From positions 176,703-240,702 of the forward strand of contig CAZJPE010000001.1 in NCBI GenBank assembly GCA_964547875.1: a stretch of 64,000 bases of DNA. The letters run 5' to 3'. Made by a program: the position numbers and the translations under genes. The DNA comes from Candidatus Woesearchaeota archaeon. GTDB lineage: Archaea > Nanobdellota > Nanobdellia > Pacearchaeales > GW2011-AR1. Below are positions 5,273 through 54,093 of the stretch, one piece after another (the stretch's first letter is position 1; each line of letters begins with the position of its first letter). A model generated the notes under the pieces. That model was not told the DNA's origin. It was given only the letters and a program-made list of their open reading frames with translations, and searched no databases.

Positions 5273-5541
5273 AAACTGAAAATTTAGTATTAATGATAGT
5301 CTTAATCATACTTGCACTATTTGTCTTCAGCAATTTATTTGGATATGGAACAAGAGGCTATAATTACGGGATGATGGGCATGATGAACAATTTCTTCGGG
5401 GGATTTGGCTTTATGTGGCTTTATGGCTCGCTATTCATGATTTTGATTTTTGTAGCATTAGTGCTCTTTGTAGTCTGGCTTGTCAGGCAATTGCAACAAC
5501 CACAACATTTGTCTCGTCAAGAGATTAGGAGAAGAAGATAA
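5269..5541 (+). CDS. Small membrane protein
   Basis: 90 aa with two hydrophobic helices and a Gly/Met-rich loop. ATGA overlap with the arsR stop. Confidence 0.5.
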   Translation: MKTENLVLMIVLIILALFVFSNLFGYGTRGYNYGMMGMMNNFFGGFGFMWLYGSLFMILIFVALVLFVVWLVRQLQQPQHLSRQEIRRRR

Positions 5542-5882: not shown

Positions 5883-7838
5883 ATGGATCATGGACATCAT
5901 GAAACAAAGGTTGATGAGAATCTAGAAGATATTGAGATGAGGACATGGCTAAAAAGAATGATTTTTGGCTGGATATTCGCAATACCTGTCGCAATAATAA
6001 TGCTTTCTGAAAGAATATTTGGACTTATGATTATTCCAGAGCAATATTTTGTAATTGTTTTATTGCTCTTGGCATTTCCTGTTGTTTTTATTTTTGGCTG
6101 GGAAACTATCAGAGGAGGAATGCGCGGACTTTTCACATTTTATTTTAACATGGATTCGTTGATTGCTTTAGGGACAGTCATTGCCTATATTACAGGCATA
6201 TTAAGTTTTATAGGCATAGTTGATGACTATTCTGGCGTTGCTGCAATGATAATGGCGTTTTTCATCACAGGAAAATATGTTGAAAGCAAGGCGAGGGGAA
6301 GGGCATCTCAAGAAATAAGAAAATTGCTTGAATTAGGAGCAAAAAAAGCGAGAGTTTTGAGAAATAGGAAAGAAATGGAAATACTAATTTCTGATGTTAA
6401 AGTAGGAGACATTATGATTATAAAACCTGGCGAGAAAATCCCGACTGATGGAATTGTGATTAAAGGCGAGAGTGCTATTGACGAGAGCATGATAAGCGGA
6501 GAGAGCATGCCTGCAGAAAAAAGAGCAAAGAGCAATGTTATTGGAGCAACAATCAATCAGGATGGAATTTTATATGTAAAGGCAACGAAAATAGGGAAAG
6601 ATACTTTTTTAGCTCATATTATAAAGTTAGTTGAAGAAGCCCAAGGCACAAAGGTTCCGATACAAAAATTAGCCGATAGAATAACTAGTATTTTTGTGCC
6701 TATGATTTTAATTATTGCGATTTTAACATTTATAGCATGGTGGTATTTTTCAGGGAATTTAAGCACGGCAATTGGAGTTGGAGTGGCTGTACTAGTTATA
6801 GCATGCCCTTGTGCATTGGGGTTAGCAACGCCGACTGCTTTGATGGTTGGCTCTGGAATGGGAGCAAGAAGGGGAATATTGTTCAGAAAAGGCGAAGCAA
6901 TCCAGACAATGAAAGAAGTGAAGATAGTTGTGTTTGACAAAACAGGGACAATTACTAAAGGAAAGCCAGAAGTTAGGGAAATATATTCAAAAATCAGAGA
7001 ATCTAATTTACTGGAGATTGCTGCGTCTTTGGAAAAACTTAGCGAGCATCCAATTGCTAAGGCAATTGTTGAAAAAGCGAAACAGAGAAAATACAAGGAT
7101 GTCGAGAAATTTAATATATTAAGAGGAAGGGGTGTAGAAGGTTTTATAGGTAAAAATAAGATAATTATTGGGAATTCTACATTGATGAAAGAGAGGAAGA
7201 TTTCATTAAATGGATTTGAAGAAATAATACAAAAATTTGAGAATTCTGGCTATACTACAATGATTGTATCTGAAAAAGAAAAACCAATAGGAGTTATAGG
7301 AGTGGCTGATTCTGTTAAAGACGATTCTGTTGAAGCGATAAACGCATTGAAAAATAGGGGCTATAAAACAATTATGATTACGGGAGACAATGAAAGAACT
7401 GCAAAGGCGATTGCAAAAGAGGTTGGAATAGATGAAGTTATCGCAAATGTCCTGCCAGAGGATAAAGCAAAAAAATTAGAGGAATTGCAGAAGCAAGGAA
7501 TGACTGCGTTTGTTGGGGACGGAATTAATGATGCCCCTGCATTGAAGCAGGCAAATGTGGGAATTGCAATGGGCAGCGGAACAGATATTGCTATTGAGTC
7601 AGGAGATATAGTTTTAGTTAAGGGCTCTTTAACAGGAGTTGTTCAGGCAATTAATTTATCAAAGGCTACTTTTAGGAAGATAAAGCAAAATTTGTTCTGG
7701 GCATTTGCTTATAACGTTATAGCTATTCCGTTGGCTGTTGCAGGATTATTGCATCCTGTAATTGCAGAGATTGCTATGGCTCTTTCTTCTGTGACAGTTG
7801 TAACTAATGCGAATTTGCTGAGGCGAGCGAGAATTTAA
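5883..7838 (+). CDS. copA: Copper-translocating P1B-type ATPase
   Basis: CPC motif (ACPCALGLATP), DKTGTIT phosphorylation site, TGDN, GDGINDAP. The track ORF starts at TTG 5868, but ATG 5883 (MDHGHHE) is preferred. Confidence 0.92.
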   Translation: MDHGHHETKVDENLEDIEMRTWLKRMIFGWIFAIPVAIIMLSERIFGLMIIPEQYFVIVLLLLAFPVVFIFGWETIRGGMRGLFTFYFNMDSLIALGTVIAYITGILSFIGIVDDYSGVAAMIMAFFITGKYVESKARGRASQEIRKLLELGAKKARVLRNRKEMEILISDVKVGDIMIIKPGEKIPTDGIVIKGESAIDESMISGESMPAEKRAKSNVIGATINQDGILYVKATKIGKDTFLAHIIKLVEEAQGTKVPIQKLADRITSIFVPMILIIAILTFIAWWYFSGNLSTAIGVGVAVLVIACPCALGLATPTALMVGSGMGARRGILFRKGEAIQTMKEVKIVVFDKTGTITKGKPEVREIYSKIRESNLLEIAASLEKLSEHPIAKAIVEKAKQRKYKDVEKFNILRGRGVEGFIGKNKIIIGNSTLMKERKISLNGFEEIIQKFENSGYTTMIVSEKEKPIGVIGVADSVKDDSVEAINALKNRGYKTIMITGDNERTAKAIAKEVGIDEVIANVLPEDKAKKLEELQKQGMTAFVGDGINDAPALKQANVGIAMGSGTDIAIESGDIVLVKGSLTGVVQAINLSKATFRKIKQNLFWAFAYNVIAIPLAVAGLLHPVIAEIAMALSSVTVVTNANLLRRARI

Positions 7839-37659: not shown

Positions 37660-37755
37660 ATGAGTGATAATAAAATAAATTGGAAAGAAATTGCACTTTG
37701 GATTTTGATAATTTTGATTATTATAATGTTATTCGCATTATTTTTTAGAGAATGA
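37660..37755 (+). CDS. Unannotated 31-aa single-pass membrane micro-ORF (MSDNKINWKEIALWILIILIIIMLFALFFRE)
   Basis: Hand-read. Promoter motif at the correct distance, ATGA overlap with the next ORF, and an N-terminus paralogous to it. Confidence 0.35.
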   Translation: MSDNKINWKEIALWILIILIIIMLFALFFRE

Positions 37756-38003
37756 AGAATAAAATAAACATATACGAAATACTATTTTGGATATTTTTTA
37801 TAATTGCAATTATAATGATTTTATGGTATGTCTTTGGCGATAGCCCAACAATTGAACAAACATTATTGATTTTGATAATTACTTTTTTATTCAAGATACA
37901 GGCTGATGTAGTTTATAATATGTCTGAGATAAAGATTCTTAAGAGCAGTTTTATTAGATTGGCTGGAGATTTTAAAGAACATATAAAACAAACTAAAAGA
38001 TAA
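37752..38003 (+). CDS. Small membrane protein
   Basis: 83 aa. N-terminus MKNKINIYEILFWIFFIIAIIMILW. Confidence 0.5.
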   Translation: MKNKINIYEILFWIFFIIAIIMILWYVFGDSPTIEQTLLILIITFLFKIQADVVYNMSEIKILKSSFIRLAGDFKEHIKQTKR

Positions 38004-38021
38004 TTTAGAAAAGAGGATGAG

Positions 38022-38744
38022 ATGAAAAAAGAATTCTGGAAAGATTGGAAAAGAAAAACATCTATAGAGAAAAAAGCAATTGAAGCGGTAAAAAGAGCAA
38101 GAGAGTTAATTATAAGAGCAATTCCCAAGAAAAAACTCGTAGCTATTTATATCAAGGGAAGTTTTATAAGAAGAGAGATGAAAAGAGGAAGCGACGTTGA
38201 TATAGTTCCTATAGTAGCTGAAAACAAGTATGAAAAACCTATATTTGAATTGAATAAACCTGAAATTACGCCATGCGTAATCGTTCCTTTATCACTTTGG
38301 GAATTAAAAAATAATAAATTGTTCACTAAAAACAATTCTCCTAGAGCAAGACCAGATAGATTTATTAAATACCTAAGCCATTATAAGCTAATTTATGGAA
38401 AAGCCCTAAATACAACTAATTTTAAAATCAGAACAGATGAAGAAAGCTTTAAGGCTCTTATCAAAGCATTCAAAAAATCTTTTATCCCATTATACGAAAA
38501 AGGAAAGCTTGGATTTTCTGGAATAATAAAAGAAACATTCTGGCTAACTGAATTAGAGCAAAGAATTAAATTAATAATTCCAATCTTTTCGTTTAGAGGA
38601 GTATCTAAATCAATTAGAGACAAAAATCATATAGTTCATGATGCTTGGAAATTGAGATTACATAAAACAAAAGACAAAAGAAAGAGAAAAGCATTTATTA
38701 TTAAGTTAAAGAAACATCTTAAGCGATTGGAAGAATTAAATTAG
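38022..38744 (+). CDS. Pol-beta-fold nucleotidyltransferase domain protein
   Basis: VAIYIKGSFIRREMKRGSDVDIVPIV. Confidence 0.65.
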   Translation: MKKEFWKDWKRKTSIEKKAIEAVKRARELIIRAIPKKKLVAIYIKGSFIRREMKRGSDVDIVPIVAENKYEKPIFELNKPEITPCVIVPLSLWELKNNKLFTKNNSPRARPDRFIKYLSHYKLIYGKALNTTNFKIRTDEESFKALIKAFKKSFIPLYEKGKLGFSGIIKETFWLTELEQRIKLIIPIFSFRGVSKSIRDKNHIVHDAWKLRLHKTKDKRKRKAFIIKLKKHLKRLEELN

Positions 38745-38855
38745 CACATTTAGCGCTAATTGTTAGACACGCTCTGGAAATCGGAAGCCTTATAAATATT
38801 TGCGTAAAATATATCTAATTTAATACCAAAAAGGAAGTCGGCAAAAGCTTTTTAA

Positions 38856-38863
38856 GGGGGGGG
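38856..38863 (+). repeat. G8 homopolymer between TATA-like element and start codon of a secreted protein gene
   Basis: Read directly: ctttttaaGGGGGGGGcgtagataaggtATG. It is the longest G/C run I noticed in the window. Confidence 0.9.
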
Positions 38864-38875
38864 CGTAGATAAGGT

Positions 38876-40378
38876 ATGATGAAAAGAATCTTTTTACCAA
38901 TTAGTTTAATTATCTTAGTTGGATTTTTAGGTTTAGTAATTGCTTCAGAAATTGAGAGCGGCGTACCAATATACAAGGGATGGAATCTTATTTATGGATT
39001 TACTCCTAACTCATTAGATGGACAGGCATTTGAATTTAGCCATATAAAAGCAATATATTCTTATGTTCCTCAAGAAGGTAGGTATGTTAGACTTTTTCCA
39101 AGACCAGAAAATTCTATAGTGGATAAGTATGGTGATAGTTATTTTGAGAAGCAAGTTAATTGGGTTTACTCAGATGTTTCAGATACCTCATCACGAACAG
39201 AATATTGGCTTGAGGAACCGCTTCCTATAGGCGAGACTACTTTAGTTTCTGGTTGGAATTTTGTTAGAGTTACTCCTGACATGTTTTATGAGAAAGATGG
39301 AACTGAGGTTTTTTCTTGGAATTCTATAAAGGGAAGTTGTATTATACAAAGAGTTTATGCTTGGAATCCAGAAACTCAAGATTGGATGCAAATATCTCCT
39401 TCAGAAGAGTCTTTTGATTTTGATGATTTTCTTATGATGGGGATGGCTGTAAGAGTGTCAAATAATTGCAAATTAGAATTTTTAATTATTAGTCCGCCGT
39501 CTTTACCTATTATTGAGGAAGAGTCCACAGACGAAGATACAGAGGAAGAGTCCACTGATGACAACACAATAGAATCTACTTATTTTCCGAAAACAATTTC
39601 AACTTATTCACTTTATGATTCAGGAGAAGAACCTGAAGAATGTATTGACGATGGCTCTTTATGCGCTGAGGGATTAAGGGGAGAATATAGAGATTCTGCT
39701 ACAAATAGCGTAGTCTTTGTTGGGCTATGGGATATTGATGTGACGGATGCTACAAAGGGCAGTGAAGAAGCGCAACTTAAAGAATATTTTGCTTCTTCAT
39801 TTGACGAAGATAGTGATGGGACTTTAGATTCTATATTGATTGGCTCTAATAAGCTGTATCGTTTAGAAGATCATGAATTATTTTGGTTTACAGGCAAGGA
39901 TTTTCCTCCTTTGATATTTACTCAAGAGGGCAGTCTTCATTTAAGAGAAGAGGGAAGTTACGATTTCACTTATGGAACTGCGACTGGAGATAATGCGGTA
40001 ACTAAGAAGTTTTTATCACTTTATCCTTCTAAAGAAGTGGAAGATGCTACGCAGTTTGTAAGTGCCTGTGTTACTAATGCGCCTTTCAATTGCAAGGATT
40101 ATACTATCGGGACAAACGCAATTAATCTGAATATTGGGAATGGCGGAGGAGAATTTTTTGTAATTGACCAAGTTAAAATAACTATCAATGAAAAGATTTG
40201 CTCAACTTCTTCTGCTTGGACACTTGGCCCTAATACATCACATAGTTTTATACTTTCCTGCAATAATGCTCTTACGCTTGGAGCAAATATAGATGGTGAC
40301 ATTGCAATTATGTATCATAAATCAGGCAGTAATATAAAACTAGTATCTACGGGCGCAATTAAGGGCCAAGTTTATTGA
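38876..40378 (+). CDS. Secreted/surface protein with signal peptide and acidic linker
   Basis: MMKRIFLPISLIILVGFLGLVIA signal-like N-terminus and an EEESTDEDTEEESTDDN linker. Confidence 0.6.
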   Translation: MMKRIFLPISLIILVGFLGLVIASEIESGVPIYKGWNLIYGFTPNSLDGQAFEFSHIKAIYSYVPQEGRYVRLFPRPENSIVDKYGDSYFEKQVNWVYSDVSDTSSRTEYWLEEPLPIGETTLVSGWNFVRVTPDMFYEKDGTEVFSWNSIKGSCIIQRVYAWNPETQDWMQISPSEESFDFDDFLMMGMAVRVSNNCKLEFLIISPPSLPIIEEESTDEDTEEESTDDNTIESTYFPKTISTYSLYDSGEEPEECIDDGSLCAEGLRGEYRDSATNSVVFVGLWDIDVTDATKGSEEAQLKEYFASSFDEDSDGTLDSILIGSNKLYRLEDHELFWFTGKDFPPLIFTQEGSLHLREEGSYDFTYGTATGDNAVTKKFLSLYPSKEVEDATQFVSACVTNAPFNCKDYTIGTNAINLNIGNGGGEFFVIDQVKITINEKICSTSSAWTLGPNTSHSFILSCNNALTLGANIDGDIAIMYHKSGSNIKLVSTGAIKGQVY

Positions 40379-40380
40379 AT

Positions 40381-40575
40381 ATGAAAACAAAAGGAGATGA
40401 TAAAAAAGGGAGTGCTTGGATTTGGATTTTAGTAATTGTTATTTTAATTGTTATTGGAATTGTGATTTATATGGCAGTTTCCGGCAGTTTTGTTCCAAAA
40501 CCGCCTGCTTTGCCTGATGCTGGCGGCGCTGCTTCTGGCAGTTCAATACCGGCGCCACCTGGATTGCCTAAGTAG
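40381..40575 (+). CDS. Small single-pass membrane protein with Pro-rich tail
   Basis: WIWILVIVILIVIGIVIYMAV, then PKPPALPDAGG...PAPPGLPK. The ATG at 40381 follows track TTG 40375. Confidence 0.45.
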   Translation: MKTKGDDKKGSAWIWILVIVILIVIGIVIYMAVSGSFVPKPPALPDAGGAASGSSIPAPPGLPK

Positions 40576-40638
40576 TAAGAATTGTTTTTTATAAGAAAAA
40601 TAGATTCGAGTATTCAAAATATAGCTATGGTTTCTTAA

Positions 40639-40654
40639 AAAACCATATGGTTTT
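40639..40654. promoter_or_regulatory. Perfect 16-bp palindrome AAAACCATATGGTTTT (plus extra ATGGTTT half-site at 40627-40633) abutting promoter of the MNT/HEPN/PRTase operon
   Basis: Read directly. It ends 2 nt before the promoter motif at 40656-40670. Confidence 0.6.
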
Positions 40655-40655
40655 A

Positions 40656-40670
40656 GAAAGATTTATATAG
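40656..40670 (+). promoter_or_regulatory. Consensus promoter motif gaaagatttatatag
   Basis: ATG at 40691 lies about 24 nt downstream. Confidence 0.5.
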
Positions 40671-40690
40671 TTTCTATTGATACCATTAAT

Positions 40691-41257
40691 ATGAAAATAA
40701 AAGAAGTTAATTTGGACAGCAATGAACCTTATTTGAAAGTAATGAGATGGTTTTTCTCTTTTCCAGAGAGAAAAATAGGGCTAAATGACTTAATAAAAGA
40801 AGTCCATATATCTAAAACTACAGCGAATAAAGTTATTAACAGGCTGGAGAAGGAAGGCTTCTTAATAAAGGAAGTTATCGGCAAGGCATGGAGAATTAGT
40901 TGTAACCAAAAACATCAATATAATATAACCAAGAAGATATGTTATAATCTTGAATTGATTTATGAGTCTGGGATAATAAAAGAGATAGATAAAAAATATA
41001 AGCCCAAATCTATAATATTATTTGGTAGTTATAGAAAAGGAGATGATAATGAAAAAAGTGATATTGATATTGCAGTTGAGATTGTTTCTAATATTGGATT
41101 AAGAATTGAAGAATTTGGAATATTAGAGAAATTTGGATTTAGGAAAAATGTGAAGATTAATGTTCATATGTTTTCAAGAAAAAAGATAAACAATAATCTT
41201 TTTTCAAATATCGCTAATGGAATCATTCTCGATGGGTTTTTGGAGGTTAAACAATGA
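40691..41257 (+). CDS. Winged-helix-like domain fused to minimal nucleotidyltransferase (MNT)
   Basis: N-terminal GLNDLIKEVHISKTTANKVINRLEKEGFLIK. NTase motif IILFGSYRKGDDNEKSDIDIAVE. Confidence 0.8.
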   Translation: MKIKEVNLDSNEPYLKVMRWFFSFPERKIGLNDLIKEVHISKTTANKVINRLEKEGFLIKEVIGKAWRISCNQKHQYNITKKICYNLELIYESGIIKEIDKKYKPKSIILFGSYRKGDDNEKSDIDIAVEIVSNIGLRIEEFGILEKFGFRKNVKINVHMFSRKKINNNLFSNIANGIILDGFLEVKQ

Positions 41258-41646
41258 GGCAGAGAATTCCTGATAAAGAAAAGGCAAAAAGCTTGATTGC
41301 ATCTGCAAAAAAAGATTATGAATATACTTTAACTTTAGAAGTAAATGATAATTCTGCAAATACTATAATTAGAAATATTTATGAATCTTTTAGGATGTTG
41401 GGAGAATCTCTGCTAACTATAAAAGGAATTGAATTTACGGAGCATATTGAATGTATCAAGGAATTAATTAATTTAGATATAAAAACAAAGAGGCCAGCCC
41501 AGATTTTGGATTATTTGAGAAAAACAAGGCATAGAATCAACTATTATGGATATATTGCTAAAAAAGAAGAAGCAGAAGAAATTATTTCAATAGCTAAAGA
41601 CTTCTTTTTGGAATTTTATAAGGAGGTTGAAAAGAGGGCGAGATGA
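41254..41646 (+). CDS. HEPN-like helical protein
   Basis: 130 aa, all-helical, with an LRKTRHRINYYGY region resembling the HEPN R-x-H/Y motif zone. ATGA overlap with the MNT stop, and GGAGG upstream. Confidence 0.65.
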   Translation: MRQRIPDKEKAKSLIASAKKDYEYTLTLEVNDNSANTIIRNIYESFRMLGESLLTIKGIEFTEHIECIKELINLDIKTKRPAQILDYLRKTRHRINYYGYIAKKEEAEEIISIAKDFFLEFYKEVEKRAR

Positions 41647-42143
41647 AAATTCAAGCTGAATTAAAGAAGAGAATGAAAGAGGATAGTGGATATTTAATTA
41701 CGGCATATCCCAAATTATATAGAAAAGTCATAAGTGCTATGATAAAACCATTTAAAAACAAGGATATTGATAAAATAATGTCTCCGGAAATGAAAGGTAT
41801 GCTCTTTGGACCTGTTGTTGCATTTAAAATGAATTTGCCCTTTGTGAGTATTGTAAAAGGTGGAAGAATTCCAAAGAAATTTATATTGAGTAGAACTTTC
41901 AAAGATTATACCAATAATACAAAAACGCTTAATATCGCTAAAATTACTGTAAATAGAGGAGATAAGATACTTCTAGTGGATGATGTTTTTGAGAGCGGAA
42001 AATCTGGAAAAGCAATAATAAAAATGATAGAGAAACTAGGAGGAAAAGTCGTTGGTATCTCACTAGTCTATAATAAATTAAATGAAAAGAATGAGAATTT
42101 TTTTAAGAAATATAATTTTCATTATTGTGTAAAAATGAAATAG
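41643..42143 (+). CDS. Type I phosphoribosyltransferase, adenine-PRTase-like
   Basis: IDKIMSPEMKGMLFGPVVAFKMNLPFVSIVKGGRIP...GDKILLVDDVFESGKSGKAIIKMIEKLGGKV (PRPP-binding loop). ATGA overlap with the HEPN stop. Confidence 0.8.
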   Translation: MKIQAELKKRMKEDSGYLITAYPKLYRKVISAMIKPFKNKDIDKIMSPEMKGMLFGPVVAFKMNLPFVSIVKGGRIPKKFILSRTFKDYTNNTKTLNIAKITVNRGDKILLVDDVFESGKSGKAIIKMIEKLGGKVVGISLVYNKLNEKNENFFKKYNFHYCVKMK

Positions 42144-42157
42144 TCTGAGGTAATAAG

Positions 42158-42259
42158 ATGAAAAACTTAGAAATTGCCAAGATTCTTTATGAAATAGCAG
42201 ACATGCTTGAGATAAAAGGAGTGGAATTCAAAGATATAAAAGAGAGACGATTACGATAG
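42158..42259 (+). pseudogene. 5' fragment of a polX gene (33 codons; first 25 homologous to 43564-43638)
   Basis: MKNLEIAKILYEIADMLEIKGVEFK versus PolX MKNLEIAKILYEIADMLEIQGVAFK. 64/75 nt identical, and 7 of 9 changed codons are synonymous. Confidence 0.8.
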
Positions 42260-42300
42260 GTTTATAAATTACTAGTAATTATTAATAATAACTTTAAGTC

Positions 42301-42333
42301 CCCAGTATGACCTCTTCATGAGGGAATGCTGGG
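42301..42333 (+). other. Imperfect 14-bp-arm hairpin CCCAGTATGACCTC-ttcat-GAGGGAATGCTGGG followed by T-rich tract
   Basis: 12 of 14 positions pair. The following sequence is tttaatattttattttt. Possibly a terminator or RNA element at the cassette boundary. Confidence 0.4.
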
Positions 42334-42386
42334 TTTAATATTTTATTTTTACAAATATTTATAATCTTATTTTCTAATTGAATTAT

Positions 42387-43064
42387 ATGAAAAAGCCAAA
42401 AGCCATTATTTTCTTTGATGCAAATAACTGGTATCATAATGTAAAGAACATGGTAAAGCCAAGCGATATTGATATAAGAAAGATTGCAAACTTAATATGT
42501 TCTGCTAATGAATACGAATTAGAAGGAGTAAGATGGTATGTATCAACTCCAAGCATAAAAGATGGGGAAGCAATGTATTATCGTCATATGTCTTTCTTAT
42601 CACATTTAGAGAAGCAAGGAATTAAAGTTGTTACAAGAAAACTTCAGAGATTATCTAATAAAGAGGTACAGGAAAAGAAAAAAGAACTGATTGATTCATT
42701 GGGGTTTTGTAAAGTTTGTAAACCATTAGCAGAAGAGAACTTTCTTGAATTAGCTGATATGAAAAGAAAGGAAAAAGGAATAGACGTCTGGATTGCAATT
42801 GATATGATTAGAAAATTAATAATAGAAAATAAGTGTGATGTCTGTATTTTGATATCCGGAGATGCTGATTTTGTTCCAGCCTTAGAATTAATTAAGGAAA
42901 GCGGAAAAGAGATATTAAGCTCTTTTGTCCCAATTGGTTATTCTTATGAATTAAGAAGCAAATTCAAATATTTCTTTCTAGGTAAGAACAATATAATAAG
43001 TTGTTTAAAGGGTTATAAGCAGACCAAGAAGGAGAAAAATAATAGTGAAAAGAGGCTGAAATGA
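42387..43064 (+). CDS. NYN/LabA-like domain protein (PIN-like nuclease fold)
   Basis: KAIIFFDANNWYHNV...GIDVWIAIDMI...ILISGDADFVPALELIKESGKEI. The ATG at 42387 follows track TTG 42378. Confidence 0.8.
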   Translation: MKKPKAIIFFDANNWYHNVKNMVKPSDIDIRKIANLICSANEYELEGVRWYVSTPSIKDGEAMYYRHMSFLSHLEKQGIKVVTRKLQRLSNKEVQEKKKELIDSLGFCKVCKPLAEENFLELADMKRKEKGIDVWIAIDMIRKLIIENKCDVCILISGDADFVPALELIKESGKEILSSFVPIGYSYELRSKFKYFFLGKNNIISCLKGYKQTKKEKNNSEKRLK

Positions 43065-43567
43065 AATTCAAAACAAAAAACTTTATTTTAAGACCGCCCA
43101 AAAAGGGTGATGAAGGTAGCTTATGGGAGAATTATAATGAACCCCAAGTTATTAGAAGTTTTGTAACAAATCCTACAGAGAAGCAATTTAAATCTGATTT
43201 TAAAAAAGGACTAAAAAATCAAGAAAAAGATGCAGAAAGATTTGTTATCGAAATTGATGGAAAAGCTGTTGGGAAAATAAATATAAAACTCTTTGATCCT
43301 TATAATAAGACAAAGGCGAAAATAGGATATTGGATAGGGAAGAAGTATCGTGGAAAGGGAATTGTTACTGAAGTAATTAAATTAGCTGTTCCTTATTGGA
43401 TGAAAAAATATAAATTAAAAAGAGTTGAAGCAAGAGCGAGAACCTATAACAAAGCTTCAGCGAGAGTGCTTGAAAAAGCTGGTTTTGAGTTGGAAGGAAT
43501 TTTAAGAAAGAATGTTCTTAAAGATGGAAAATTGTATGACGATTTTCTCTATGCGAGGCTGAAATGA
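43061..43567 (+). CDS. GNAT-family N-acetyltransferase (RimJ/RimL-like)
   Basis: GYWIGKKYRGKGIVTEVIKLAVPYWMKKYKLKRVEARARTYNKASARVLEKAGFELEG. Confidence 0.85.
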   Translation: MKFKTKNFILRPPKKGDEGSLWENYNEPQVIRSFVTNPTEKQFKSDFKKGLKNQEKDAERFVIEIDGKAVGKINIKLFDPYNKTKAKIGYWIGKKYRGKGIVTEVIKLAVPYWMKKYKLKRVEARARTYNKASARVLEKAGFELEGILRKNVLKDGKLYDDFLYARLK

Positions 43568-45276
43568 AAAACCTAGAAATTGCGAAAATCCTTTATGAAA
43601 TAGCAGACATGCTTGAAATACAGGGAGTTGCGTTCAAGCCGAGGGCTTATCAACGAGCAGCTCGGGCTATTGAAAGTCTGTCAGAGGACATAGAAAAGAT
43701 TTACAAGAGAGGCGAATTGACGAGCATTCCTGGAGTTGGCGAGCATATTGCAGAGAAGATTTCTGAATTTCTTGAGACTGGAAAGCTGAAATATTATGAT
43801 GATTTGAAGAAGAAAATGCCGATAAAAGTTGAGGAGCTGACAGGCGTTTCAGGGATAGGGCCAAAGAGGATTATGACATTGTACAAAAAACTTGGGGTGA
43901 AAAATTTGAAAGATTTGCAGAAAGCTGCTGAAAAGCATAAAATCCAGAAGATAGAGGGATTTGGAGAAAAGGTTGAAGAGGACATACTTAAGGGCATTGA
44001 ATTCGCCAAGAAGAAAACAGGAAGATTTTTGCTGGGCTATATCATGCCTCTTGCAGAAGAAATTAAAGATAATATCGCCAAGCTGAAGAGCGTTAAAAAA
44101 GTGGAGATAGCTGGCTCTTACAGGAGAAGAAAAGAGACTGTTGGAGATATTGATATTTTAGTTACTTCTAATAAGCCAAAAGATGTAATGGATTATATTA
44201 TTAAAATGCAGGATGTTGATGCGGTTTTAGCGCATGGAATTACAAAATCAATGATAAAATTAAAAAATGGCTTGGAAGTTGATGTAAGAGTTTTAGACGA
44301 GAAAGAATATGGAAGCGCATTGCAGTATTTTACAGGGAACAAAGAGCATAATATTGCTTTAAGGAACATTGCACTGAAAAAAGGATATAGTTTAAGCGAG
44401 TATGGCTTGTTCAAACTAAAGGGGAAAAAATGGATTGCTGGAAGAGCGGAAAAAGACATTTATCAAAAACTTGGATTACAATACATAGAGCCTGAGATGA
44501 GAGAGAATAATGGCGAGATTGAATTGGCTTTGAAGAAGAAATTGCCCGGCCTTATTAATTATGGGGATGTTAAAGGAGATTTGCAGATGCATAGCGAATG
44601 GAGTGACGGAAGCAATACAATTGAAGAAATGGCTTCTGAAGCCAAGAAATTAGGAATGAAATTTATTGCGATTACAGATCATGTTGGACAATTGGCAATT
44701 GCGCATCCTTTAAATAAAAAAAGGCTTGAGAAACAGAGCAAAATTATTGACAAATTAAATGACAAGCTGAATATCAGAATTTTTAAGGGAGCTGAAGTTG
44801 ATATATTAAAAGACGGAAAATTAGCTCTTGATAGGAAAATGCAGGATGAGCTGGATATTGTGCTTGCAGCTGTTCATTCTGGCTTTAAGATGAGCGAGGG
44901 AGAGATGACTGCAAGAATATGCAAAGCGCTAGAGAATGATAGAGTTCATATTTTTGCGCATCCAACTGGAAGGTTATTACAGCAGAGAGAGCATTACGCT
45001 GTGAATTTTGAGAAACTCTTTGAAACTGCAAAGCAGAACGATGTTTTTTTGGAGATTAATTGCTATCCTGAAAGGATGGACTTAAATGGGGGGCTTATAA
45101 AATCTGCAAAAGAAAGCGGTTGCAAGTTCAGCATTGGCACAGATTCTCATAATAAAGAGCATTTAAAATATTTGAAATTAGGAGTTTCTTTGGCAAGGCG
45201 AGGCTGGCTTGAGGCAAGGGATGTTTTAAACACATTCAATGCAAAGATGATTGAGAGGGTTTTGAGAAGGAAGTAG
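43564..45276 (+). CDS. polX: Family X DNA polymerase with C-terminal PHP domain
   Basis: HhH motifs, GSYRRRKETVGDIDILV, and PHP DLQMHSEWSDG...HP...GTDSH. Confidence 0.92.
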   Translation: MKNLEIAKILYEIADMLEIQGVAFKPRAYQRAARAIESLSEDIEKIYKRGELTSIPGVGEHIAEKISEFLETGKLKYYDDLKKKMPIKVEELTGVSGIGPKRIMTLYKKLGVKNLKDLQKAAEKHKIQKIEGFGEKVEEDILKGIEFAKKKTGRFLLGYIMPLAEEIKDNIAKLKSVKKVEIAGSYRRRKETVGDIDILVTSNKPKDVMDYIIKMQDVDAVLAHGITKSMIKLKNGLEVDVRVLDEKEYGSALQYFTGNKEHNIALRNIALKKGYSLSEYGLFKLKGKKWIAGRAEKDIYQKLGLQYIEPEMRENNGEIELALKKKLPGLINYGDVKGDLQMHSEWSDGSNTIEEMASEAKKLGMKFIAITDHVGQLAIAHPLNKKRLEKQSKIIDKLNDKLNIRIFKGAEVDILKDGKLALDRKMQDELDIVLAAVHSGFKMSEGEMTARICKALENDRVHIFAHPTGRLLQQREHYAVNFEKLFETAKQNDVFLEINCYPERMDLNGGLIKSAKESGCKFSIGTDSHNKEHLKYLKLGVSLARRGWLEARDVLNTFNAKMIERVLRRK

Positions 45277-45351
45277 ATAGCTACGATGTTATTATCAAAG
45301 ATTTAAAAGCAAATGAATAATTTTAATAAGGTAATTTAGCCTATTTTATTT

Positions 45352-46557
45352 ATGATTAAATGTGATTATTGTAGCAAGAAAATAGAACAGGTTTTACCAC
45401 ATAAATGTAAATTTTGTGGACTAACCCATTGTCATAACCATCTGTTACCAGAATCTCATTATTGTGTTGGGTTGGAACAACATAAAAAAGGAAATTTAGA
45501 AAGATGGAAAAAAGGAATTTTACAAAGTCGTCCTATTAATTATTATTCTGATGTAAATGAAGGGCTTGAAAAATTAGATAATCCTAAACCAGTAAAAGCA
45601 AAACAAAATATAAAACAAAAGTTTTCTGATAAGATAAAGAGTTATTTGATTGATAAATATGAAAACTTTGGATATTGGTTAAGAAAAAGAGAGCATCATA
45701 AATATGACTTTGAAGGAAGGTTAAATCATCTTATAGTAACTATCTTATTTTCGATAGCGTCTATTGTTGGGCTTGCTATATTTTATTCAAATGCCCCAAA
45801 ACTAAATGAGATAGATTTTTGGATAATTAAGTTAGGAGGGGTTTTAATCTTAACTTCTCTATTCTTTACTATAAAATTTGGGTGGAGGCTTGGCAAAGAA
45901 ATATTAAATATTTTCAAAAGACAGAGAAATTGGTTGAAATATCTAATAGTTATTTTAATTGCCTTCTTCTTATGGTCAGCATATATAGATAAAGATACTA
46001 TATTAGACCCAGTTTTTGATATTTATAATAAAATAAATTTTAGTTTATCTGTTCCAATTAATTTAGGCAATTTTAGTTTTGAAAGTAATTCAAATCCTTT
46101 AAGCACAAATTCTGATGCAAATAAAGAAGGAAATAGCTGGTTTGATAGTAATTCGGATAGAGACGTAGGAGAAATAGAACAAGAGATATTAATATTAGTA
46201 AACGAAGAACGTCAAAGAAATGGGGTTAGAGCATTAAGTGCTAAAAGCAACCTTAATAGTTTCGCAAGAAGTTGGAGCGAGAAGATGATTTCTCAAAACT
46301 TCTTTGAACATAGCAATTTGGATTTTCCTTATCCCTCAATAGCAGGAGAAAATATTGGCGAGACCCCTGTTCATTACAATGTTGTTGGATGTGGTTCGAC
46401 ATATACAAATTATCAGATGGCTGAATGTTTCGTAAGCGGATGGATTAGTAGTTATGGTCATCATGAAAATATGATAAGCAAGAGCTTTTCTATGACTGGA
46501 GTAGGCGTAGCTTGTGATTCTTCTAAATGTAGAGCAACGCAGGTGTTTAGTGGTTAA
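45352..46557 (+). CDS. AN1-like zinc-finger / transmembrane / CAP (SCP/PR1) domain protein
   Basis: CDYCSKKIEQVLPHKCKFCGLTHCHNHLLPESHYC, three or four hydrophobic helices, and C-terminal LVNEERQRNGVRAL...GHHENM. Confidence 0.7.
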   Translation: MIKCDYCSKKIEQVLPHKCKFCGLTHCHNHLLPESHYCVGLEQHKKGNLERWKKGILQSRPINYYSDVNEGLEKLDNPKPVKAKQNIKQKFSDKIKSYLIDKYENFGYWLRKREHHKYDFEGRLNHLIVTILFSIASIVGLAIFYSNAPKLNEIDFWIIKLGGVLILTSLFFTIKFGWRLGKEILNIFKRQRNWLKYLIVILIAFFLWSAYIDKDTILDPVFDIYNKINFSLSVPINLGNFSFESNSNPLSTNSDANKEGNSWFDSNSDRDVGEIEQEILILVNEERQRNGVRALSAKSNLNSFARSWSEKMISQNFFEHSNLDFPYPSIAGENIGETPVHYNVVGCGSTYTNYQMAECFVSGWISSYGHHENMISKSFSMTGVGVACDSSKCRATQVFSG

Positions 46558-46601
46558 TTAGATAAAAGAATGCTTTAATAATATGAGAATCCCGTTATCT
46601 T

Positions 46602-47051
46602 ATGGACATATATTCTTATATTGAGAATATCTCTCAAAATATAATTTCAAGTCTAGTTAGTATAGAAAGACCTATAGATGATTTTTTTAATGTTCTTTTT
46701 AATAGCTTTTCTGATTGGATATTTATTTTAATAGCAACGATTATTGGTTCAGTTGTTGCAGTAACTGTGGATAGGAAATTTAAAGACCATAAAAGTATAC
46801 AAACAAAATATTTATTGAAAGAGGTTTTTAAACAGACTATCGCCGTTACAATCACAGTTGCGATTACTTTAATATTTGCTGGAATATTTTTAGGTTTATT
46901 TGCTGGATTGTTGAATGTTGGAGCAAAATATTCTGCTTTAGTAACTTTATTAGTAGTTATAGCAATTGGATTTTGCATTTATCTTAAAAGAAAAAAGAGA
47001 AAGAGGGCTCTTTTGGCTAGACTTAGAAAAATAAAGAATAGAAAAGTGTAA
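46602..47051 (+). CDS. Membrane protein, basic C-terminus
   Basis: 149-aa ORF with hydrophobic helices. Confidence 0.5.
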   Translation: MDIYSYIENISQNIISSLVSIERPIDDFFNVLFNSFSDWIFILIATIIGSVVAVTVDRKFKDHKSIQTKYLLKEVFKQTIAVTITVAITLIFAGIFLGLFAGLLNVGAKYSALVTLLVVIAIGFCIYLKRKKRKRALLARLRKIKNRKV

Positions 47052-47130
47052 ATTGTTATTTCACATCTTCACTTCCGTTCAAAATGCCTCTGTTTTTGTT
47101 CATTTGAAGTCATCTTTAGTTAATCCTGTC

Positions 47131-47157
47131 AAAAACCTTTGAAAGCCAAAGGTTTTT
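47131..47157. other. Perfect 11-bp stem hairpin AAAAACCTTTG-aaagc-CAAAGGTTTTT
   Basis: Read directly. It lies between the gene ending at 47051 and the TATA (ttttatatat) of rpoE. Confidence 0.6.
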
Positions 47158-53511: not shown

Positions 53512-54093
53512 ATGGAAGAAAAAAAGATCGACAAAAGTGATGAGAAAAAGAAGGAAAGAGTTTCAATTTTTATTGATGGAAGTAACCTTTATCATGGTTT
53601 GAAGGTTCTTGGAATTAAGAGAATTGATTTTAATGAATTTACGAAATTACTTGCTGGGGGTAATGAGATAAAAAGAATTTTTTATTATACTGCTAGAATG
53701 GATAGAGCTTTTGATGAACAAAGATTCCTTAAACACCAAAAATTTCTTCGGAAATTATCTTTGATTCCAAAGTTTAAGATAGTTTTTTGTACATTTAAGA
53801 AAATTGTGGAAAAAGACGGGAAAATCAGATATGAAGTTAAGGGAGATGATGTTCAATTAGCAAATGATATGCTTGTAGGGGCCTATGAAGATTTTTATGA
53901 TATTGCAATATTAGTTTCGGGGGATGAAGATTTTAAGCCAGTAGTTCGAACTGTTAAAAGATTAGGAAAAAGAGCTGAAAATATATTTTTTAGAGGAGGA
54001 TCTTCATCTCGTTTAAGAAAAACTTGCAACTCTTCTAAGAATATAAGATTTATTTTAGAAGAATTAAAAAGGCGTCCTGGCATTACAAAGTAA
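53512..54093 (+). CDS. NYN/LabA-like domain protein
   Basis: RVSIFIDGSNLYHGL...DDVQLANDML...ILVSGDEDFKPVVRTVKRLGKR. Confidence 0.8.
   Translation: MEEKKIDKSDEKKKERVSIFIDGSNLYHGLKVLGIKRIDFNEFTKLLAGGNEIKRIFYYTARMDRAFDEQRFLKHQKFLRKLSLIPKFKIVFCTFKKIVEKDGKIRYEVKGDDVQLANDMLVGAYEDFYDIAILVSGDEDFKPVVRTVKRLGKRAENIFFRGGSSSRLRKTCNSSKNIRFILEELKRRPGITK

Follow-up and report, generated by a model that had tools for sequence, protein, structure and literature searches.

In Escherichia coli, e14 and phage 21 recombine into the icd gene: the prophage brings in a surrogate gene end, and the displaced end persists as a partial duplicate. Homology-facilitated illegitimate recombination, and the exchange of gene islets in hot spots bordered by core genes, are established in naturally transformable bacteria. 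To our knowledge, no genetic system exists for DPANN archaea; these organisms can be neither grown nor genetically manipulated, so that scars in their genomes are among the few records of gene gain and shuffling. Here, we characterize one such scar in a 64,000-nucleotide stretch (hereafter "the window") of a Candidatus Woesearchaeota archaeon: positions 176,703–240,702 of contig CAZJPE010000001.1, assembly GCA_964547875.1. The window belongs to a 290-kb contig of a low-GC (33%) DPANN archaeon, drawn from a groundwater metagenome (ENA ERZ27284378). In the window, the first 25 codons of polX, which encodes a family X DNA polymerase, occur twice: once as a short upstream stub, and once at the start of an intact polX gene. 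Two genes lie between the copies, encoding (i) an NYN-domain nuclease and (ii) a GNAT acetyltransferase (Table 1).

The locus is an ordinary kind of insertion scar within a variable islet. Two of its features are unusual: the stub evolves as coding sequence would, and a nuclease cassette whose history is separate from that of its flanks carries a leader hairpin that is conserved yet undescribed. This cassette, made up of a TATA box, a 5' hairpin and the NYN gene, has the stub at its left edge. The explanation that we consider probable, without being sure of it, is that the stub is the displaced original polX start, left at the cassette's edge by a single, old event; islet and cassette were subsequently exchanged and the GNAT gene was added, through joints that are homology-anchored at one end and illegitimate at the other.

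As in the icd/e14 and phage 21 cases, a partial duplicate of a gene end flanks the insert, the inserted side restores the gene, and the differences between the copies are mostly silent. The locus differs from icd/e14 in that the 5' rather than the 3' gene end is duplicated, the insert measures only 0.9–1.4 kb, and no integrase is encoded. In addition, the repeats are old (85% identical), and the displaced copy evolves like coding sequence. Hence, the locus shares with an attachment-site-duplicating element of the icd/e14 type the flanking repeats and the intact target gene (polX), but not the encoded recombinase. The bacterial islet hot spots provide a second point of comparison: there too, joining is homology-anchored at one end and illegitimate at the other, the joints carry short duplications, and islet content varies between close strains. 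Unlike in those hot spots, the process is inferred here for DPANN archaea, the stub is apparently a secondary anchor, and the joints lie precisely at start/stop overlaps.

Examination of the two polX copies reproduced the counts on which the original prediction was founded. The copies match at 64 of 75 nt; seven of the nine differing codons are synonymous (the two replacements being K20Q and E23A), and the stub reading frame, which diverges past codon 25, stops at 42257–42259. The mostly synonymous divergence is real and statistically significant (P = 6e-5), and the annotation of the neighbouring genes (MNT, HEPN, PRTase, NYN, GNAT and polX) holds. The extent of the repeat is counted as 75–79 nt (42154–42232 and 43560–43638), within which the longest exact run is 26 nt (42185–42210). 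The break at codon 25 is sharp, because there is no detectable polX homology beyond: comparison of the stub tail with codons 26–45 of six polX genes gave no significant match. No further copy of the polX start (at least 42/75 matches to either copy) was found elsewhere on either strand of the 64-kb window, and a search of the closest relative's contig (L150, below) for a more decayed third copy likewise yielded nothing at or above 42/75. The identity of the downstream gene is clear. Its product qualifies as PolX, a family X DNA polymerase with a PHP domain: it matches the NCBIfam equivalog NF006375 with 506.8 bits (cut-off 426) over residues 3–569, and contains the Pfam domains HHH_8, HHH_5, DNA_pol_B_palm, DNA_pol_B_thumb and PHP.

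Since one sample holds two related strains, the repeat could conceivably be an assembly artefact, produced by collapse or chimeric joining of their differing polX starts. We checked this against a public groundwater sequencing run (X1) that contains 96% of the sampled words of the window. Logan contigs built independently from X1 match two pieces of the window exactly: 41033–42274 (covering the PRTase gene and the stub, and running on past the latter), and 42902–44028 (the end of the NYN gene, the GNAT gene and the polX start). Each polX copy thus lies inside an exact contig with unique sequence on both sides, and depth over the two pieces is even (~32). The X1 assembly graph does branch, but only within the NYN gene, where the second strain shares sequence. 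Moreover, the architecture recurs in the second strain, for which an ENA contig and an NCBI metagenome-assembled genome were assembled independently; X1 supports that strain's arrangement exactly, at a depth of ~20. The chimerism about which the original prediction had cautioned is therefore hardly credible.

Comparison with relatives places the repeat in a region of variable gene content. The second strain is the closest relative (hereafter, the sister strain) and is represented by L002, a contig of the NCBI metagenome-assembled genome, and L150, a contig of 60 kb recovered from the sample that also yielded the window; its polX is 83% identical to that of the window at the amino acid level and 79% at the nucleotide level. 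A third strain is represented by a fragment, L149, a 1.8-kb contig (1–1789) from another sample. Three relatives are more distant, with polX identities to the window of 75% (L175), 72% (L152) and 68% (L003); no polX relative closer than 67% identity was found in JGI metagenome contigs. In L175 and L152, a homologue of orf83, a small membrane-protein gene, directly adjoins polX with an ATGA overlap, and there is neither a stub nor an NYN gene. In L003, a single HTH-NTase gene separates the orf83 homologue (47% identity, E 6e-19) from polX, again without stub or NYN gene, and a further locus (L176) has other polX neighbours. The content between orf83 and polX thus differs among relatives, and 38004–43563 is therefore a variable islet in a hot spot between these two genes. 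The relatives carry zero to one islet genes; the window genome carries nine toxin–antitoxin- (TA-) or defence-like genes.

With respect to these cassette-free relatives, the block between the repeats is an insertion, as originally predicted; an arrangement common to all relatives, which would have spoken against that prediction, was not found. The proposal that either the left or the right block is the insertion proved too simple, in that the content of the left block changes on its own. The sister strain has, left of the stub, the series MTase-GNAT-HEPN-MNT-UPF0175-DUF3368 (PIN-like)-APH, and the window MNT-HEPN-PRTase, so that the gene abutting the stub is APH in one and PRTase in the other; no DNA homology was detected between the left part of the islet and L150. 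The unit linked to the stub is the NYN cassette, and the GNAT gene reflects a separate, later rearrangement. The locus is a hot spot beside a DNA-repair gene, where successive TA- and defence-like genes meet at joints precise to the codon. Stop and start codons overlap (ATGA) where NYN meets GNAT and again where GNAT meets polX.

Of the 33 polX loci that include an N-terminus, only the window and the sister strain carry the stub. In the latter, the order is stub, the same stub/tail joint, promoter region, hairpin, and an NYN gene fused straight to polX, with no GNAT gene between. The stub in L150 carries AGGAG at the Shine–Dalgarno (SD) position, though the DNA farther upstream is unrelated to the window. 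Because the two strains share the stub, the stub/tail joint, the promoter, the hairpin and the NYN gene, the arrangement arose once, before these co-occurring, groundwater Woesearchaeota-like strains split. The joint is common to both strains, and therefore the stub is older than their split.

Despite this age, the stub shows little sign of decay. The stubs of the window and L150 differ at 10 nt but by only one amino acid, a conservative D/E change, and therefore evolve like coding sequence rather than a decaying remnant; when 10 changes were placed at random, so few replacements were never obtained in 50,000 trials (P<2e-5). Between the stubs, the proportion of differing synonymous sites (pS) is 0.585, as in polX, and that of differing nonsynonymous sites (pN) is 0.033, below that in polX, giving a pN/pS of ~0.06 (dN/dS ~0.03). 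No stop codon, and no indel between the strains, was found in codons 1–25; a frameshifting 4-nt indel follows immediately. In addition, all replacements between each stub and its own polX map to the live polX copy, and the stub peptide of L150 is identical to the PolX N-terminus of L003. The stubs thus keep the ancestral peptide better than do the live polX genes, and an ATG and an SD-like motif are kept in both. On these grounds (10 nt versus one amino acid, pN 0.033 versus pS 0.585, and intact codons 1–25) a neutrally decaying pseudogene fragment was rejected. The constraint may mean that the stub is re-templated from functional polX alleles, or that it is still translated. A more general caution follows: a partial copy of a gene at the border of an islet need not simply decay, since re-templating or translation can preserve it.

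These results bear directly on the strict form of the original prediction, in which a foreign NYN+polX block recombined into a resident polX, by homology on the right and illegitimately on the left after codon 25, leaving the stub as a dead remnant of the resident gene. Such an event would account for the mostly silent differences between the copies and for the sharp loss of homology at codon 25. The co-occurrence of related strains in one sample makes exchange plausible, and one-sided illegitimate joins do occur at this locus, as seen at a 15-nt GNAT junction described below. However, a dead remnant predating the strain split (polX dS 1.4) would have accumulated just one D/E change and neither a stop nor an indel, yet the 27 nt just past the stub already carry the 4-nt indel. 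Further, no stub-less NYN-polX donor was found among the 33 polX loci. We regard this account as rather unlikely. As for the proposal that the stub derives from a different polX allele, the mostly silent pattern stands, but it is indistinguishable from that of an in-place duplication, and the stub has not decayed. Pairwise distances among eight sequences (the two stubs and six polX starts) are all similar, with 52–65/75 nt matching, and silent sites are near saturation; the comparison therefore cannot tell one gene from two alleles.

The stub could, alternatively, be a functional micro-gene: a 33–37-aa peptide under selection for its first 25 residues, which correspond to the first helix-hairpin of the PolX 8-kDa domain. 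An ATG, an SD-like motif and 25 codons are kept in two strains, the peptide is more conserved than in live polX, and gene callers called the stub open reading frame (ORF) in both assemblies. Against this, the C-terminal tails are wholly different through the 4-nt indel (DIKERRLR vs DTKDDYDRFINY), and a 25-residue piece of a helix-hairpin-helix domain has no known independent function. Moreover, a search of 1.84 billion representative proteins turned up no such ORF elsewhere; only truncated polX genes surfaced. A micro-gene is thus improbable, and we continue to favour a displaced polX start.

Not all parts of the shared arrangement are equally old. Between the window and L150, synonymous divergence (dS) is 1.14 for the stub, 1.38 for polX, 1.04 for the GNAT genes (which occupy different positions in the two strains), 0.59 for rpoE' (the gene following polX in the sister strain), and only 0.20 for the NYN gene; the silent-site divergence of NYN differs from that of polX with p = 4e-19. 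The low divergence extends beyond the gene: the 154 non-coding nt 5' of NYN show 7 substitutions and 5 gap columns. The rate of divergence changes, on the left, within ~12 nt of the stub end, and on the right, ~25 nt before the NYN stop. Accordingly, differences are more frequent in the stub (10/75) than in the cassette interior (40/807; p = 0.007). Across three strains (window, L150 and L149), the GNAT genes are 11–15% apart and the NYN genes 3–6%, making NYN 2.5–4 times less diverged. The cassette interior is younger than the stub, polX and rpoE', and therefore appears to have been exchanged among co-existing strains well after its flanks diverged. That is, a nuclease cassette with its own evolutionary history seems to move among strains of the same groundwater.

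A cassette younger than its flanking repeats invites another interpretation: an integrase-less mobile module that carries a look-alike of the polX start and enters or leaves by Campbell-type recombination between the 75–79-nt repeats, much as phage 21 and e14 supply an icd 3' end of their own, both copies being selected as possible working starts. The direct repeats do flank the cassette exactly, the right copy restores polX, and both copies look selected. In addition, what follows the NYN gene on its right differs in each of three close strains—GNAT-polX in the window, polX in L150, and GNAT-HEPN in L149—and an exact 18-nt repeat flanks another NYN cassette (L066, below). Several observations point the other way. 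Firstly, neither excision (skip) joints nor circle joints were found in the Logan contigs of three runs, contigs from which rare variants are dropped. Secondly, there is no integrase, and other NYN loci lack a duplicated downstream gene start. Thirdly, independent entry predicts that one copy of the repeat is as similar between strains as the cassette, but both are old: the stub copies match at 65/75 nt, and the polX-start copies at 59/75. We give this possibility little weight, and return to a single old event followed by exchange.

Concerning the joins of the NYN gene, L149 links NYN (97% identical to that of L150) to a GNAT-HEPN-like block; the L150 counterpart of this block is located 3.9 kb upstream of its NYN gene (L149 1–1789 compared with L150 5150–5863 and 1464–2548). 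This could represent a third chromosomal arrangement, or a tandem or circular form.

The GNAT gene of the window carries the mark of its own arrival. Its body is flanked by two exact copies of a 15-nt sequence, GAGGCTGAAATGAAA, such that the last four GNAT codons and the polX overlap are a copy of the NYN 3' end. Homology to the GNAT genes of L149 and L150 stops at 43554: those genes end in GCTTGC(A/G)TAAGATGA, and that of the window in GCGAGGCTGAAATGA, the NYN 3' end. Because the 3' end of the window GNAT gene copies that of NYN, polX formerly followed directly on the NYN end, an order that L150 retains. The L150 GNAT orthologue (85% nucleotide identity) lies 3.9 kb upstream of NYN, behind a methyltransferase gene. 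GNAT thus entered between NYN and polX by a join without homology on the right side.

Taken together, these comparisons suggest the following course of events. The upstream copy would be the displaced original polX start, comprising the ribosome-binding site and codons 1–25, with the cassette lying between it and a complete polX whose start overlaps the stop of the cassette's last gene. Given this overlap, transcription of polX together with the cassette, and translational coupling to it, are probable. The joints would have formed by recombination of incoming islet DNA from related strains, by homology on one side and illegitimately on the other; neither an integrase nor a transposase need have taken part, and the duplicated lengths vary (75–79 nt at the stub, 18 nt in L066, 15 nt at GNAT). 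Judging by the differences between the strains, the left islet was later swapped, the NYN interior was replaced or homogenized, GNAT was joined, and the coding sequence of the stub was kept as its silent sites saturated. On the left side of the cassette, nothing but the stub resembles polX. When the left islet is replaced with DNA from a donor in which a functional polX directly follows the islet, the stub could therefore supply the homology anchor on the right and be re-templated from the donor's allele.

Several points weigh against this course of events. The test for selection on the stub is one pairwise comparison of 25 codons in two strains. Further, re-templating predicts an excess of differences towards the 5' end, but the 10 differences between the stubs are spread evenly (positions 10–72 of 75), albeit in a small sample. 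Site patterns between each stub and its own polX are 3:2:2 (three sites agree with the own polX, versus two and two for the other groupings), which leaves cis gene conversion between the stub and its own polX unproven. The expected donor arrangement—a stub-less NYN-polX, or a polX allele close to the stub—was not found among the 33 polX loci, and polX alleles in the same runs all differ from the stub at 5–8 of 45–70 nt. Lastly, the low divergence of NYN could reflect unusual constraint rather than exchange.

Two kinds of mobile element were also considered and rejected. A transposon or insertion sequence does not fit the variable duplication length, and the repeats reported include no terminal inverted repeat. 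No transposase or integrase/recombinase domain was found in the islet (38004–43563), and only NYN and GNAT lie between the repeats. An integron cassette was set aside because no integrase is present and because the hairpin, at 33 nt, has no R''/R' core sequences and stands between a TATA box and the 5' end of the ORF.

In the hairpin itself (42301–42333), a GA/GA internal loop separates a basal stem of 8 bp from an apical stem of 4 bp, which is capped by a loop of 5 nt; a T-rich tract follows. The 127-nt intergenic region in which it lies folds with a z-score of -3.3. Upstream, a TTTATAWA-type box is found 25–30 nt 5' of the motif AAGTCCCC in six NYN loci, and the TATA-like box in the window is the putative NYN promoter. 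The structure is conserved: in eight sequences, all 93 pair cells (100%) hold standard pairs, four pairs show compensatory changes, and the covariation score was reached in 0/500 shuffles. The consensus is an 8-bp stem (CCCRGURU/AYGCYGGG) with a GA/GA internal loop in most copies and a variable apical stem; one invariant U-G pair in the stem fits only the sense strand. A covariance model built from the eight sequences (R1) scores 66.6 bits at the window hairpin and above 15 bits nowhere else in the window, and a search of 42293–42338 against Rfam 15 returned no family match at E<=10.

The hairpin identified in the original prediction is therefore real, but it is not a junction feature: it recurs before NYN homologues in unrelated contexts, and is therefore a conserved NYN 5' leader. 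A consensus scan did not call it as an intrinsic terminator; it sits 3' of the TATA box, and at several homologous loci is followed by a pyrimidine-rich tract with no T run. The NYN leader offers a specific and testable case of a possible new cis-acting RNA element, linked to nucleases already under suspicion of acting in defence.

The hairpin was also seen without an NYN gene, in two low-GC, virus-like IMG/VR contigs (L155 517–557, minus strand; L179 7988–8024): one copy lies ~200 nt 5' of an HNH-like ORF, and the other is the first of two tandem hairpins. Three further IMG/VR pattern matches (L177, L178 and L180) were discarded as GC-rich chance matches within coding sequence.

Precedent exists for a nuclease that is linked to a stem-loop of its own: Regnase-1, an NYN/PIN-like RNase, cleaves stem-loops in its own mRNA. 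The archaeal NYN family is similar in having a conserved stem-loop on the nuclease's own predicted transcript, one that is sense-strand specific (the invariant U-G pair) and whose stems covary. It differs in that the hairpin is 5' rather than 3' and is also found before non-NYN genes in the two virus-like contigs.

The NYN product of the window contains a LabA/DUF88-type NYN domain (Pfam PF01936, 63.2 bits against a cut-off of 24.2, E 4.9e-17) and matches the PADLOC model HEC-09 (E 4.9e-11). Seven catalytic Asp/Asn residues (D11, N13, N14, D133, D139, D159 and D161) and four cysteines are invariant in 12 homologues. HEC-09 is an NYN-domain candidate defence gene described as "embedded" in Hma and type I restriction–modification (RM) systems; in the published assay, its representative failed to protect against the phages used (Payne et al., bioRxiv 10.1101/2024.01.29.577857). 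In line with HEC-09, the window NYN matches the model, its catalytic Asp is conserved, and relatives (69–73% identical) lie between hsdS and hsdR of type I restriction systems. Unlike HEC-09, it sits before a DNA-repair polymerase and not in an immune system. The passages of the preprint consulted make no mention, for HEC-09, of the 5' hairpin or the four-Cys insert of the archaeal family (bioRxiv 10.1101/2024.01.29.577857).

NYN homologues with 62–74% identity occur in several other contexts: hsdS-NYN-hsdR, beside Mre11/Rad50-like genes, after an NTase gene, and before a tRNA synthetase gene. The TATA box and hairpin precede the gene in every other-context NYN locus for which DNA was examined, and the inserted unit is a minimal expression cassette of ~0.9 kb, from promoter to stop codon. 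No NYN relatives were found in phage, plasmid or IMG/VR collections. At three other NYN loci (L063, L066 and L068), no duplicate of the downstream gene's start was detected at either the DNA or the peptide level.

Around the cassette in L066, an exact 18-nt direct repeat was observed (5362–5379 and 6393–6410), the left copy being the last codons of the upstream gene. This looks like a second junction duplication around an NYN cassette.

A bolder proposal can be built on these contexts: that TATA-hairpin-NYN is a mobile, promoter-bearing DPANN module that (i) settles before genes for large nucleic-acid enzymes (polX, hsdR, tRNA synthetase) and takes over their transcription, (ii) is exchanged as a discrete unit, (iii) carries in its hairpin a new RNA element recognized by NYN, for autoregulation or targeting, and (iv) upon insertion leaves a selected coding stub of the target gene that serves as a recombination handle or a micropeptide. 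In its entirety, this is a long shot.

Table 1. Positions of features in the window and of leader hairpins on other contigs.
Feature	Contig	Positions	Strand	Remarks
orf83, 83-aa membrane-protein gene	window	37752–38003	+	conserved left anchor of islet; homologue abuts polX in L175, L152
Islet, left part	window	38004–42143	+	Pfam, PADLOC, NCBIfam matches
NTase-like gene	window	38022–38744	+	
500-aa secreted-looking protein gene	window	38876–40378	+	
HTH-MNT gene	window	40691–41257	+	
HEPN gene	window	41254–41646	+	
PRTase gene	window	41643–42143	+	
SD-like GAGGT	window	42147–42151	+	6 nt 5' of stub ATG; spacing equals that before real polX starts (GAGG)
polX stub, codons 1–25 (MKNLEIAKILYEIADMLEIKGVEFK)	window	42158–42232	+	left direct repeat; matches 43564–43638
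Junction tail, non-polX	window	42233–42260	+	left end of cassette, just 5' of TATA box; L150 homologous bar one substitution and 4-nt indel
TATA-box-like TTTATAAA	window	42261–42268	+	putative NYN promoter; TTTATAWA-type box
Conserved NYN-leader hairpin motif (UUUAAGUC, stem-loop, GGGUUU)	window	42293–42338	+	stem-loop proper 42301–42333
NYN (LabA/DUF88-type) nuclease gene	window	42387–43064	+	alternative TTG start 42378; PADLOC HEC-09-like
15-nt junction repeat, copy 1	window	43052–43066	+	NYN stop overlapping GNAT start
GNAT acetyltransferase gene	window	43061–43567	+	Acetyltransf_3, RimL/RimJ-like; secondary insertion between NYN and polX
15-nt junction repeat, copy 2	window	43555–43569	+	replaces native GNAT 3' end, carries polX start
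Intact polX, 570 aa	window	43564–45276	+	HhH 8-kDa, fingers, palm, thumb, PHP; first 75 nt (43564–43638) are right direct repeat
zf-AN1/CAP (CAP/SCP)-domain gene and 149-aa membrane-protein gene	window	45292–47138	+	second strain-specific insertion, 3' of polX, between polX and rpoE'
Hairpin before NYN	L063	5915–5959		
Hairpin before NYN	L066	5536–5580		
Hairpin before NYN	L068	5881–5929		
Hairpin before NYN	L166	3913–3955		
Hairpin before NYN	L171	3938–3977		
Hairpin before NYN	L150	5088–5133		

The remaining features of the window lie outside the cassette. On the other side of polX, the sister strain (L002/L150) lacks the second strain-specific insertion, such that rpoE' directly follows polX. 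A second, different NYN-domain gene (193 aa, ~53512–54093) is found ~10 kb downstream, without a leader hairpin.

In the left part of the islet, a 66-aa ORF lies between the genes for the 500-aa protein and HTH-MNT. No Pfam domain was found in the 500-aa protein; a 27-nt tandem repeat in its gene (39515–39568) encodes EEESTDEDT / EEESTDDNT, an acidic linker. The PRTase is nearest to adenine phosphoribosyltransferases, yet falls far below their cut-offs, and shows a weak PADLOC match to the PRTase effectors ShosT and PsyrT. Together with the MNT-HEPN pair, it may be the toxin-like effector of a three-gene module. Finally, a junction motif, GAAAAGAGGnnGAnATGAAA, that combines an SD-like sequence with a stop/start overlap was observed at three islet joints (38000–38027, 41621–41648 and 43039–43066); it may be only the local ribosome-binding-site consensus, or may provide microhomology used in gene stacking.

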